A DNA stretch of 64,000 bases from an uncultured Bacilli bacterium. GTDB lineage: Bacteria > Bacillota_I > Bacilli_A > RF39 > UBA660. Made by a program: the position numbers and the translations under genes. The stretch is taken from NCBI GenBank assembly GCA_934141245.1, contig CAKPCB010000003.1, positions 66,596 to 130,595 of the forward strand, given 5' to 3'. Of the stretch, positions 6,829 to 50,704 are shown piece by piece. Numbering within the stretch: position 1 is the stretch's first letter; each line of letters begins with the position of its first letter. A model generated the notes under the pieces. That model made no database searches. It worked only from the letters and a program-made list of their open reading frames with translations, and was not told where the DNA came from.

Positions 6829-6834
6829 AGCTTT

Positions 6835-6914
6835 GATGCAATAAATATATTGGAATCAGGTCAGGATTGGAAGATAGCAGCCTTAACAATTAATATTTAT
6901 GTGCATCATTTTTT
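6835..6914 (+). ncRNA. ffs: Small SRP RNA (4.5S/scRNA-type, domain IV only)
   Basis: Contains CAGGTCAGG-ATT-GGAA-GAT-AGCAGCC. This matches the universally conserved SRP RNA helix-8 motif (E. coli CAGGUCAGG-UCC-GGAA-GGA-AGCAGCC), and the base pairs closing the GGAA tetraloop covary. A long terminal stem (GATGCAATAAATATATTGG / CCTTAACAATTAATATTTATGTGCATC) is followed by a T6 run. A promoter lies upstream. Confidence 0.6.
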
Positions 6915-6925
6915 ATGGAGAATTT

Positions 6926-17993: not shown

Positions 17994-18124
17994 AGTGATA
18001 TTACTTAGGTATATTTTCTGTATAATATAGAATAATATATATAGGTTATATTGAAATTTAATTTATTGTATTGAATTATAATACTTTTTTTGATATAATC
18101 TTCACATATTTATTGTTTTGAAGG

Positions 18125-18325
18125 AAAGAGTTATATATGCTTTTTATAGAGAGTCTTTGTTTGGTGAAAAAAGATATTAGGTATATAATGGATGGCTCCT
18201 GAACTTGTTAATTGATATGTAGGTTAACACGTTAGCAGCGTTAATGCATTTGAGAGTATAGATTTAATCTATAAATTAAGGTGGTACCGCGATTATTCGT
18301 CCTTATGATGAATAGTCTTTTTTTA
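18125..18325 (+). promoter_or_regulatory. T-box riboswitch leader (probable Met specifier) with terminator, upstream of dut-metG
   Basis: Canonical T-box sequence AAATTAAGGTGGTACCGCG at 18273-18291. Downstream terminator (GATTATTCGTC-cttat-GATGAATAGTC + T7) at 18291-18324. AGAGAG GA-motif early in stem I. AUG triplets at 18188-18194. An extended -10 (TGATATAAT) lies upstream. Confidence 0.6.
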
Positions 18326-47592: not shown

Positions 47593-47604
47593 AAATTCCT
47601 TTTC

Positions 47605-48354
47605 TTGATTGAGGCGATTTATATGATTAATTTTATTATATGTGATGATAATAGGGAGTTTTTAAAAAAAGAGAAAAATATTATTGATAAACTTATGATG
47701 AGATACGATATAGAATATAAGTGTATCTTATTTGATGAATATAATAAAGACTTTGAAAACATGGCCGCAAAGGATATAGGGTTTAAAATATATTTACTTG
47801 ATATTCAAACAAAAAATGGCTCTGGACTTGATGCAGCAAGATGTATAAGAGAAGAATTAGATGACTGGGTTTCAATCATTATAATAATAACTGCATTTAA
47901 TGAATTTAAATATGAGGCATTAGGTAACAGACTATACTTATTGGATTTTATTAATAAGCTAAATAAGTGTGATGAAAATCTTAAAGAAACTTTAGAAATT
48001 GCAATAAAACATTATGATAATAGAGAAAAAAGTTTAAGTTATGAATATAATCATATAATTAAAAAAATAGAATTTAGACATATTATATATATAGAAAAAG
48101 AACTTGATAGCAAAAGAAGTTTAGTAAAGACAACTTATGGAGCACATTTTATAAACAAAAATTTAAATGAAACAGAACCGCTTTTGGATAATAGATTTAT
48201 TAGAACAAGTAGAAGCATGATTGTAAACATTGATTATGTAAGTGAATTTGATATGAAAAACAATAAAATAATCTTTAAATCTGGAGATGTTTGCTATCAA
48301 GTCTCTAGAAAAAAGAAGAAGGAGTTACGGGAATATGTTAGAAACAACACTTAG
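47605..48354 (+). CDS. agrA: LytTR-family response regulator (AgrA-like)
   Basis: Receiver domain (FIICDDN…YLLDIQT) and C-terminal LytTR domain (…FIRTSRSMIVNIDYV…). Confidence 0.75.
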   Translation: MIEAIYMINFIICDDNREFLKKEKNIIDKLMMRYDIEYKCILFDEYNKDFENMAAKDIGFKIYLLDIQTKNGSGLDAARCIREELDDWVSIIIIITAFNEFKYEALGNRLYLLDFINKLNKCDENLKETLEIAIKHYDNREKSLSYEYNHIIKKIEFRHIIYIEKELDSKRSLVKTTYGAHFINKNLNETEPLLDNRFIRTSRSMIVNIDYVSEFDMKNNKIIFKSGDVCYQVSRKKKKELREYVRNNT

Positions 48355-49624
48355 AATTATAATTGCTTTCATAAACCCTATTGTTGGTTATCATATAATT
48401 AGAAATTTTGGGGGTAAAGATAAATCCGTTTCATTATCTTTTAGAGTTTTCTTAATTTTTGTTTTAGCAGTTTCAAACTTGCTGATATATAATGTATCCT
48501 ATAATTCTTTAATAACATTGATAAATTTTTTATTAACAATAATTGTTTATAAAGCTTTATTTAAAACAAGTTTATTTGAATCGATAATTTTATCCACAGT
48601 TTTGTTTATAATTTTAACACTTGCAGATGTTGTTGTTTCACTAATTTTAGTTTCGTTTGTTACTGCAGAGGAAGTTAGAAAGAATGTGTATTATATGTTA
48701 ATTGGAAATGTCTCTGTAGGATTGCTATCTTATGCATTATCATATGCTCCATTTATAAAAAATAATGTAAAAAAATTCGTTGAAAAAAGTGAAGATAATC
48801 ATAAGGTTAAAATAGTTGTCTTTTTTTTATTAACAATATTACTGGCATCAATTTTACTTTATGCAATATCAATTAACTATAAATTAATTAACGAATATAT
48901 ATTGATAGTAGTTATAATGTGCATTTTAATTGTTTTGTTTTTAATATACATAATGGAAAATAATAACAGAATGCAATTTGAAGCTAAATACCTTTCTTTG
49001 TTTGATTATTTTAAAACTTTTGAGGATATGATTGACAGTGACAGAGAATTTATGCATGAGTATAAGAACCAATTAGCAGCTATTAGAGAAATGAATAATA
49101 TAAGTTCTGTAAGAAAATATATAAATTCAATATTAGGCTATGTTGACAACTCTAAAGTAGATTATATATCTGATTTAAAATTTATACCCAAGGGTGGTGT
49201 AAAAGGGATAATATATTATAAACTAATGATTGCTAAGAATAAAAATATAAGTGTAACAATTAATGTTAATAAAAACATAAAAGAGTTAGAATTTATAGAT
49301 AGTGAAACACAAAAAAACTTAATTAAAGTTTTAGGAATTTGCTTAGATAATGCTATAGAAGCTAGTGAAGTTTCAGAAAAAAAGAATATTTCATTAGAAA
49401 TATACAAAATGTCTAATGAGATAAGAATTGTTATATGTAATACTTATAATAGTGATTTAGTTGATTTGAATAAAATTGAAAATAAAGGCTATTCTACAAA
49501 AGGTAAAGGTAGAGGTAATGGACTATATTACTTGTCAAAGGTTATAAGTTCTCAAAAAACAATTTCTACTGAATGGGTTATTATGAATGACTATTTTGTA
49601 AGAAAGATATTTATAAAAATTTAA
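48335..49624 (+). CDS. agrC: AgrC-like (HPK10) sensor histidine kinase
   Basis: Six to seven N-terminal TM helices, H-box (EYKNQLAAIREM), and a GHKL ATPase (…GRGNGLYYLSKV…). The start overlaps the 3' end of agrA. Confidence 0.7.
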   Translation: MLETTLRIIIAFINPIVGYHIIRNFGGKDKSVSLSFRVFLIFVLAVSNLLIYNVSYNSLITLINFLLTIIVYKALFKTSLFESIILSTVLFIILTLADVVVSLILVSFVTAEEVRKNVYYMLIGNVSVGLLSYALSYAPFIKNNVKKFVEKSEDNHKVKIVVFFLLTILLASILLYAISINYKLINEYILIVVIMCILIVLFLIYIMENNNRMQFEAKYLSLFDYFKTFEDMIDSDREFMHEYKNQLAAIREMNNISSVRKYINSILGYVDNSKVDYISDLKFIPKGGVKGIIYYKLMIAKNKNISVTINVNKNIKELEFIDSETQKNLIKVLGICLDNAIEASEVSEKKNISLEIYKMSNEIRIVICNTYNSDLVDLNKIENKGYSTKGKGRGNGLYYLSKVISSQKTISTEWVIMNDYFVRKIFIKI

Positions 49625-49670
49625 AAAATAAAGTCAAGGTTATTTATCTTAAATCTTGACTTTATTTTTG
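49623..49670. terminator. Bidirectional terminator between agrC (+) and agrD (-)
   Basis: AAAGTCAAG-(16 nt)-CTTGACTTT with A/T runs on both sides. Confidence 0.5.
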
Positions 49671-49677
49671 TTATAGA

Positions 49678-49797
49678 TTAGTCCATGAATTTTGGAGCTT
49701 CTGGTTCATCAATGAACAGCCACATGCATCCAACAGAAGCTGCTGTAGAAGCTAATAGTGCAACTGCTGCTAAAGCTACTGAAAATAATTTTTTCAT
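49678..49797 (-). CDS. agrD: AgrD-like autoinducing peptide precursor (39 aa, below the ORF-track cutoff)
   Basis: MKKLFSVALAAVALLASTAASVGCMWLFIDEPEAPKFMD. It has an amphipathic leader, a Cys-containing core (…GCMWLFI) and the conserved acidic AgrD tail (IDEPEAPKF, compare S. aureus …DEVEVPKEL). GGAGG RBS 6 nt upstream. Directly downstream of agrB. Confidence 0.6.
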   Translation of the reverse strand: MKKLFSVALAAVALLASTAASVGCMWLFIDEPEAPKFMD

Positions 49798-49839
49798 ATG
49801 CTACCTCCTTTACTTTTATATAAAAATGCTTTTGCATTT

Positions 49840-50430
49840 TTAACAATTTTTATAATTATTATAAGGCATCTTTAAAGCTTTATATGTTAATGGGTTTATC
49901 ATTATTGCTTCTATTATTAATGATATAAGTAAAGTGTTTGAAACAATTCTTGTATTTATTAAAAATATGGCTATTGAATATACTATGGACAAAATAACTG
50001 AAGCAATTTTTCTATATTTTCTTTTTTTTGCATTTGTCAATGGTCTTTTAATTGTATCCGCAGGTGCAAATACTAAATAATCTATTGTACAGATGATACA
50101 CAATATAATTTTAATAGTATTACTTATATAAATTTTAGAAATTAACAATGTAAGCCCAAATATAAGTAATATTGATGTTATTAGACAAATACTACTCTTA
50201 TCGGCATGTACTCCAAATGCAGGATATCTAATTATATTCAAGAAAACTAAAACTAAAATAATTTCTTTAAATATGTTAAATATAATTGATAGTACTAATA
50301 TGACAATTAATTTAGTAATTGTTAAGTATATTCCTTCTAAACCGTATCTGATTTTTTCAATATCAGTTTCATTATAGGCATTATACTTTTTTATTAAGTT
50401 AATTGAATTGTTTAAAAAAACTTCTTTCAT
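49840..50430 (-). CDS. agrB: AgrB-family AIP-processing membrane endopeptidase
   Basis: 196 aa, four to six TM helices, conserved His/Cys region (…RYPAFGVHADKSSICLITS…). AAGGGGAAAAAT RBS. Confidence 0.75.
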   Translation of the reverse strand: MKEVFLNNSINLIKKYNAYNETDIEKIRYGLEGIYLTITKLIVILVLSIIFNIFKEIILVLVFLNIIRYPAFGVHADKSSICLITSILLIFGLTLLISKIYISNTIKIILCIICTIDYLVFAPADTIKRPLTNAKKRKYRKIASVILSIVYSIAIFLINTRIVSNTLLISLIIEAIMINPLTYKALKMPYNNYKNC

Positions 50431-50704
50431 ATTTTTCCCCTTACGAGTATAAGTATATATTATTAAATTGAAAAAAATTGTAAAATATATTTTTTGCTCC
50501 TTAAATGAATATCAATAGCAAAATGTTAACTAAGAGAAAATTTTATTACCAAAAAAGTCCAAAAAATGACTGATTACAGAAATCGACATTTTTTTAATGA
50601 ATGTTTTGCTATTATTTATATGCACACCTAAAAATATAACGTATTAATTATTGTCGTAGATTTATGGTGTATAACTAAATAATGTAAATGGAAAGGTGAG
50701 GTGT

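Follow-up and report, generated by a model that had tools for sequence, protein, structure and literature searches.

Organization of the agr locus

The complete set of genes expected for agr-type quorum sensing was identified in a stretch of 64 kb from an uncultured Bacilli bacterium (contig CAKPCB010000003.1 of assembly GCA_934141245.1; hereafter the window, meaning the whole stretch analysed). Genes for an AgrA-like response regulator and an AgrC-like histidine kinase are read on the plus strand, genes for an AgrB endopeptidase and a 39-aa AgrD precursor of an autoinducing peptide (AIP) lie on the minus strand, so that both units run towards one hairpin (Table 1). Considering the family assignments and the conservation described below, it is probable that the window encodes a functional quorum-sensing system based on a cyclic peptide and organised in two operons, as known from clostridia, and that this system belongs to the core chromosome of a gut bacterium. 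The locus is a fresh, uncharacterised case of the already-known agr systems and its mechanism is not new; its convergent order and predicted six-residue signal are clostridial variations known before.

Four sequence features of the agr family were found at the locus, namely an AgrB endopeptidase, an AgrD precursor, an HPK10 kinase with a polytopic sensor, and a regulator with REC and LytTR domains. The Pfam match of AgrB lies far above the cutoff of 23; the protein has multiple hydrophobic segments, and its His75 and Cys82, 7 residues apart, are invariant among 21 homologues, a spacing that we take to be that of the catalytic pair His77/Cys84 of S. aureus. AgrD passes the curated threshold of its family model (19 bits), and the LytTR and HATPase_c_5 matches also clear theirs. 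For AgrA, the best NCBIfam model is AgrA itself (residues 10-239), the protein could be aligned over its full length to ComE (4cbv), and Asp60 in LLDIQT and an acidic pair in ICDDN are present. The best NCBIfam model of AgrC is staphylococcal AgrC, and the best PDB match of its kinase module is S. aureus AgrC (6e52, E 1.2e-16). The H-box HEYKN (His241) of AgrC aligns to RHDY, N- and G-boxes are present, and about six hydrophobic segments occupy residues 1-211, ahead of His241. These profile searches bear out the gene identities that had been proposed for both strands in an earlier reading made from the letters of the DNA only (the sequence-only reading).

The open reading frames (ORFs) of the locus were also confirmed, those of agrD and agrB as listed in Table 1 and those of the plus strand at 47605-48354 and 48287-49624. 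Translation of agrA and agrC probably begins at the ATG codons at 47623 and 48335, respectively, since both have a ribosome-binding site (RBS; GAGG at 47611-47614 and AGGAG at 48320-48324, respectively) and the exact 243-aa and 429-aa forms appear in public gene calls; the TTG at 47605, from which agrA had been read at first, is thus less likely. The 5' end of agrC overlaps the 3' end of agrA by 20 nt. On the other strand, agrB is preceded by AAGGGGA (50442-50436), and agrD starts 42 nt downstream of agrB behind a strong RBS, AAGGAGG (49810-49804).

Table 1. Features of the agr locus and their positions in the window
Feature	Position	Strand	Basis
agrA (probable start), LytTR-family response regulator, 243 aa	47623..48354	+	LytTR PF04397 59.1 bits
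agrC (probable start), HPK10-type sensor histidine kinase, 429 aa	48335..49624	+	HATPase_c_5 42.4 bits
Bidirectional intrinsic-terminator-like hairpin	49623..49669	both strands	folding and comparison
agrD, 39-aa AIP precursor	49678..49797	-	TIGR04223 24.0 bits
agrB, membrane endopeptidase/cyclase, 196 aa	49840..50430	-	PF04647 112.7 bits
Candidate AgrA (LytTR) binding site	50543..50582	-	two boxes, 21-bp period
Sigma-70-like promoter candidate for agrBD	50457..50484	-	consensus scan 9/12

The hairpin on which the two units converge has its arms at 49623-49638 and 49655-49669, between the stop codons of agrC (49622-49624) and agrD (49678-49680), and is flanked by an A-run and a T-run. Its predicted folding energy is -18.5 kcal/mol on the plus strand (z-score -5.3) and -14.4 kcal/mol on the minus strand (z-score -3.4), and none of 200 shuffled sequences folded as well on either strand. 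A simple terminator scanner did not detect it because the loop is 10 nt long. The corresponding spacers between agrD and agrC fold with z-scores below -2 in 46 of 49 distinct lineages (median -4.1), with differing sequences and with stems that are again flanked by A- and T-runs. Preservation of the structure despite sequence change supports a genuine shared bidirectional terminator, in agreement with what the sequence-only reading had suggested.

AgrD precursor and the predicted signal peptide

In the AgrD peptide, MKKLFSVALAAVALLASTAASVGCMWLFIDEPEAPKFMD (39 aa), residues 1-23 form the leader, C24-I29 (CMWLFI) the predicted core, and D30-D39 (DEPEAPKFMD) the recognition tail. For comparison, 65 distinct AgrD sequences of the same clade were extracted from related loci. 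The spacing C-x5-[D/E]EP is found in every one of them, and the five residues following Cys are hydrophobic and hypervariable, giving rise to 62 distinct cores, 37 of which have Trp at position +2. Small residues precede the Cys, with Gly/Ala at -1 in 62 and Ser/Thr at -3 in 60 of the 65 sequences. Among 30 AgrD representatives, Cys, Glu, and Pro are invariant and TIGR04223 matches 21. The Ala/Leu-rich leader singled out in the sequence-only reading is indeed present and resembles a signal peptide, but it is not special, being common to most AgrDs of the clade; leaders of this type are typical of clostridial AgrDs.

In C. acetobutylicum, the AIP that was detected is a six-membered macrocycle lacking an N-terminal extension. 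Its precursor (GK-CVLVTL-YEPKMPEELL) shows the spacing C-x5-Y-E-P-K-M-P, and the AgrD spacing of this six-membered-ring subgroup is found both in the window and throughout the clade. Because the spacing of the window's AgrD equals that of a precursor whose six-residue ring was detected, its mature signal is by this analogy likely to be the six-residue ring cyclo-CMWLFI. Placing Ile29 in the ring means that the recognition tail is DEPEAPKF rather than IDEPEAPKF. The first description of the peptide, a Cys-containing core C-M-W-L-F(-I) directly followed by an acidic tail, therefore stands except for Ile, which had been counted with the tail and left in brackets in the core and which most likely belongs to the ring, as judged from the C-x5-D-E-P-x-x-P spacing. 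Again by analogy, cyclo-CMWLFI probably lacks an N-terminal tail, and the small residues at -1 and -3 fit a cleavage directly before Cys. The predicted [M+H]+ is 794.3728 for cyclo-CMWLFI (793.366 Da) and 681.2887 for cyclo-CMWLF (680.282 Da).

It had been expected that an ORF as short as agrD would be missed by default, which turned out not to be generally the case: public gene calls already contain the identical peptide on 63 contigs, some of them NCBI records. In three other loci (L013-L015), agrD was left uncalled by gene callers between agrB and the kinase gene, though an AgrD ORF (…GAASLGCIWALIDEPKAFNELCD) is present there. Since the first ATG yields only 27 aa in these loci, the start may be an upstream non-ATG codon.

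Conservation and divergence among related loci

The closest species representatives of the window are 'uncultured Bacilli bacterium', 'Bacilli bacterium MAG215', and 'Clostridium sp. CAG:710'. To examine gene order, we used four genome loci, 14 contigs found via exact proteins, and 80 metagenome loci, and the sources of this clade comprise human-gut, rumen-like, and rodent samples. In all of the approximately 70 related loci long enough to show agrC, csp is read away from agrB, agrB and agrD follow in the same direction, and agrC, agrA, the glycosyltransferase gene GT4, and mreB are read against them. The chromosomal position is also constant, with mreB-GT4-agrA-agrC facing agrD-agrB, followed by csp-hpf-secA. 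As this arrangement is retained down to an AgrB identity of 40%, the lowest in the set, it is considered ancestral to a broad clade. Text searches of the literature turned up no published description of convergent agr loci. The layout, called unusual in the sequence-only reading, does differ from that of staphylococci, but it is universal in the clade and also occurs on Clostridium plasmids (see below); it is thus unusual only relative to staphylococci.

The genes of the locus have diverged to very different extents. Compared with the two nearest species (L001 and L002), identity is 89% and 90% for SecA, 77% and 66% for AgrA, 69% and 64% for AgrB, and 52% and 35% for AgrC, respectively, and the most divergent part of AgrC between species is the N-terminal sensor half, as opposed to the kinase half. 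Judging from these sequence comparisons, the divergence pattern is that of a signal-receptor pair. Within the CAG:710-like species (L003 and L020-L027), the flanks are 98-100% identical whereas the sensor-coding end of agrC is only 89-94% identical, and five AgrD cores coexist (CTWVII, CMWVII, CTWIII, CMWIII, and CMWILI), which are candidate pherotypes. Such mosaic divergence across agrC points to recombination of pherotype modules. CMWLFI was the only core observed in the species of the window itself, in a sample that had been chosen by the exact peptide except for one locus (L019) with a single change in the tail.

The eight conspecific contigs are 98-100% identical, and one metagenome contig (L005) is identical to the window over 8.1 kb. 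All genes are intact in seven of the eight; in the remaining one (L009:4174-5462) a 1-nt frameshift splits agrC into ORFs of 223 and 165 aa, representing a natural agrC-defective variant. In another locus (L016, GCA_017406955.1), AgrC is called at 371 aa, compared with 432 aa in a sister contig. The secA-hpf-csp-agrBD-agrCA synteny of the Bacilli-type loci, with a SecA of 69% identity, was also observed on a contig titled 'uncultured Muribaculaceae bacterium' (L004, CAZFXQ010000003.1), which is probably mis-binned or mislabelled.

Candidate regulatory elements

By comparing 55 distinct csp-agrB intergenic regions and then searching them with a 40-mer profile, a conserved 40-bp element was found in 46 of these regions, 149-161 nt from the agrB ATG and at a variable distance from csp. 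Its box 1 has the consensus CC(G/T)TAAnnnGT(A/C), and box 2, 21 bp downstream, takes one of two forms, a near copy of box 1 or ...TTTTTTGGTAA. The boxes agree at 12 of 13 positions in some lineages, a level matched by none of 50 shuffles. In the window, the element contains box 1 CTGTAATCAGTCA (50579-50567) and box 2 ACTTTTTTGGTAA (50558-50546) with the same 21-bp period. A period of 21 bp is the known geometry of LytTR sites (AgrA, ComE, PlnC), on account of which we consider the element a candidate AgrA operator of agrBD. A direct-repeat search confined to the region upstream of agrB in the window gave nothing convincing, and the boxes emerged only from the cross-lineage comparison. No second copy of the TTGTCnnTTTCTGTAAT block was found within the window.

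Between the element and agrB, the best proximal promoter candidate consists of -35 TTTACA, a 16-nt spacer, and -10 TAATAT, and a -10-like hexamer lies 25-35 nt before the agrB ATG in most lineages. The candidate is a scan match only and not evidence of function; in this AT-rich DNA, sigma-70 matches are fewer than in shuffled sequences (23 vs 32). Near the boxes, a TTTTCGACAAAATTCGACA motif recurs 10-15 nt downstream of box 2 in many lineages (L014, L031, L035, L036, L044, L057, L058, and L080), and in the window a single inverted TCGACA (50583-50588, TGTCGA on the minus strand) sits shortly ahead of box 1. The motif could be a -35 element or the site of a second regulator.

The spacer between GT4 and agrA (47593-47622 in the window) is 30 nt long in the window, L001, and L002, and contains no hairpin or promoter match. 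Elsewhere (L034, L049, L052, L056, L080, and L081) it is 57-105 nt long, and the longer spacers carry a terminator hairpin of their own and an extended -10, TGgTAAAAT. This sequence comparison suggests that the group of the window has lost or relocated the promoter of agrAC. The short spacer without hairpin or promoter implies that agrAC is probably read through from the Glycos_transf_4 gene and is not autoinduced.

Comparison with known agr systems

That agrBD and agrCA each form an operon of their own is a textbook variation among clostridia (PMC12312760). The agr system of C. acetobutylicum is similar to that of the window in several respects, including separate signal and sensor operons, the same precursor spacing C-x5-(Y/D)-E-P-x-x-P, a six-membered ring without N-terminal extension (detected there and predicted here), and the lack of a reported RNAIII. 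However, agrBD is reported to be followed there by agrCA and then by a LanM-like effector (CA_C0082), whereas the two units of the window converge on one terminator, and the leader is long and charged there but signal-peptide-like here. No LanC/LanM-type domain that would indicate a homologue of CA_C0082 is present in the Pfam listing of the locus, the neighbours of which are Glycos_transf_4, MreB, CSD, HPF, and SecA.

Four annotated plasmid-borne agr loci were compared, two of which have the convergent order of the window. In both C. estertheticum pCEST-001C (NZ_CP087101.1) and C. tagluense pCM022-183 (NZ_CP086156.1), agrB(+) and agrD(+) face the genes of a GHKL kinase(-) and a LytTR regulator(-), AgrD is of the same design (QA-CIAYAL-EEPKMPKSLL), and AgrB is the nearest to that of the window among the four loci (37-38% identity). 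They differ from the window in being located on plasmids and uncharacterised, in AgrC and AgrA that are only 28-29% identical, in neighbours that are radical-SAM/SPASM genes or an ABC transporter, and in an agrD that overlaps the end of agrB. A third layout was observed on C. estertheticum pCF004-A (L101, NZ_CP077629.1), where agrA(+), agrC(+), agrD(-), and agrB(+) are followed by a CPBP/CAAX-type intramembrane protease.

With the agr system of S. aureus the window shares the four protein families (the kinase module of S. aureus AgrC being the best structural match), the tail motif D-E-x-E-x-P-K after the ring, a LytTR regulator expected on direct repeats with a 21-bp period, and a fast-evolving agrD/agrC-sensor module with candidate pherotypes. 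The staphylococcal architecture of a single agrBDCA operon (P2) with divergent RNAIII (P3) was not found, as agrBD and agrAC lie on opposite strands in two convergent units. In addition, the S. aureus ring has five residues and carries an exocyclic tail, and the leader there is amphipathic, whereas a six-residue, tail-less ring is predicted here, and agrCA is probably not autoinduced in the window. The E. gilvus system differs in its classic B-D-C-A order. The order reported for agr2 of C. difficile R20291, 'agrACDB', is the plus-strand order of the window; the text of the papers gives no gene orientations, and one of them suggests a single transcript. Its AIP is predicted to be NSA[SSWVA], with a five-residue lactone ring, unlike the signal predicted here (PMC12312760).

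Assessment of the agr assignment and of alternative explanations

Several observations weigh against a functional agr system of the proposed form. The REC domain of AgrA scores 21.5 bits, below the Pfam cutoff of 30.2; we nevertheless count AgrA as a regulator with REC and LytTR domains because of its full-length alignment to ComE and to the AgrA model and the presence of Asp60. The scores of AgrA (38.8 vs a cutoff of 400) and AgrC (89.9 vs 500) against the NCBI staphylococcal models are far under the equivalog cutoffs, so that orthology holds at the family level only. An Rfam scan of the locus and the entire window found no RNAIII-like match, the only hits being a T-box and a signal recognition particle (SRP) RNA. 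Both the size of the ring and its lack of a tail are derived from the spacing analogy. On the regulatory side, the window's own boxes agree at only 6 of 13 positions, and their distance of about 85 nt to the best proximal -10, which lies downstream of them, exceeds what classical activation would allow. No target genes were found, and a search of the window gave no further site with a score of at least 12.

The genes of the locus could also be interpreted in other ways. The system might be the same and the mature ring the canonical five-residue CMWLF, in which case the cleaved tail would begin with Ile29, as the brackets in the sequence-only reading allow. Macrocycles of five residues greatly outnumber all others (PMC12312760, its Table 1), and a MAFFT alignment with the AgrD of E. 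gilvus (CPFGF-YEP) can also be read as one extra tail residue. We consider this ring unlikely, because position C+5 is as hypervariable as the other core positions while the following D/E-E-P is nearly invariant, the pattern being found in 65 of 65 peptides. Moreover, one residue lies between the ring and the E/Q-P/V of the tail in the C. acetobutylicum precursor (CVLVTL/Y-EP), which would correspond to CMWLFI/D-EP in the window. Exactly one residue is found at this place in the precursors of S. aureus, L. monocytogenes, and C. perfringens as well. It seems extremely improbable that the 39-aa ORF encodes a small lipoprotein or a secreted peptide that has nothing to do with processing by AgrB: its leader resembles a signal peptide and ends in G-C, and sub-threshold matches to lipoprotein signals were obtained (LPAM_1, E 0.15; LP_plasma, E 0.23), but the ORF passes the curated AgrD threshold, is always located directly downstream of agrB, and leaves only 15 residues after the Cys, which include the conserved AgrD tail E-P-x-x-P-K. 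A lipoprotein was also rejected because the -3 residue is Ser/Thr rather than the Leu/Val/Ile of a lipobox.

A different question is whether the two units belong together. Orphan agrBD pairs are well known in Clostridia (such as C. difficile agr1 and C. perfringens agrBD; PMC12312760), the two units of the window are necessarily separate transcripts, and agrAC is apparently tied to an upstream envelope gene in the window's species, all of which would be consistent with an orphan signal or interference module beside an unrelated LytTR two-component system, whose kinase and regulator are not cognate. However, the four genes are adjacent in every related locus of sufficient length, and unrelated Clostridium plasmids also keep them together. 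No component evolves faster than AgrC, above all in its sensor, in step with the hypervariable AgrD core; the best matches of AgrC in NCBIfam and PDB are AgrC itself, and the distance from agrB to the LytTR-type boxes upstream of it is fixed. We therefore regard such an orphan module as improbable. Slightly less probable still is that the locus is an evolutionary relic whose signalling has been lost in this strain. One conspecific contig does carry a frameshifted agrC, agr-defective variants are common in staphylococci, and the agrAC promoter and terminator of other lineages are absent from the window, but the four ORFs are intact with good RBSs, seven of the eight conspecific contigs are fully intact, and the catalytic and phospho-acceptor residues are present.

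Proposed mechanism and implications

If the locus works as a cyclic-peptide quorum-sensing system, AgrB would remove the tail DEPEAPKFMD and join Cys24 to Ile29 to form the six-residue ring CMWLFI, and the leader would be cut directly before Cys to give a tail-less thiolactone. This thiolactone may further rearrange into a homodetic cyclopeptide, as has been reported for other Clostridia. The peptide would be detected by the polytopic sensor of AgrC, leading to phosphorylation of AgrA on Asp60, and phosphorylated AgrA would bind the boxes at 50579-50546 and increase transcription of agrBD. Positive feedback would act on the signal genes only, since agrAC would be co-transcribed with the upstream glycosyltransferase gene and hence not autoinduced.

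On a broader scale, we tentatively propose, with somewhat less than even confidence, that agr is a lineage-wide core module, inherited vertically between the mreB/envelope genes and csp-hpf-secA in uncultured gut 'Bacilli' that have a very low GC content and come from human, rodent, and rumen-like samples. In such a module the signal part alone might be autoinduced via an undescribed LytTR box (CCGTAAnnnGGTA, a 21-bp repeat), the sensor part might be hard-wired to the envelope operon, and the cores might diversify into within-species pherotypes. If so, the 62 cores would imply that uncultured commensals of the gut widely engage in cross-talk or interference by means of peptides. Large-scale mining of AIPs from human microbiomes has already been published. 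What the locus usefully contributes is its clade-wide conservation, an operator candidate, and a catalogue of natural core variants. For a prevalent uncultured gut lineage it offers a synthesisable signal candidate (cyclo-CMWLFI) together with a receptor and an operator candidate, and its relatives supply 61 further natural core variants. To our knowledge, agr experiments have come nearly all from pathogens and a few industrial clostridia. With peptides of this kind, quorum sensing and interference between pherotypes could be studied in organisms that are not yet culturable, and possibly growth control as well.

Genomic context of the locus

The GC content is 26.5% in the window and 21-24% in the agr genes. 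Since the latter is close to the window average, the locus is considered native, and its interpretation as a genomic island was rejected on the same grounds. Nearly all genes of the window are read on the plus strand (49 of 54 ORFs of at least 150 aa), and agrBD is therefore a small counter-oriented unit. GC skew is positive over most of the region from 40 to 58 kb of the window. The two structured RNAs of the window are also located on the plus strand, the T-box leader at 18109-18307 and the SRP RNA at 6830-6915.

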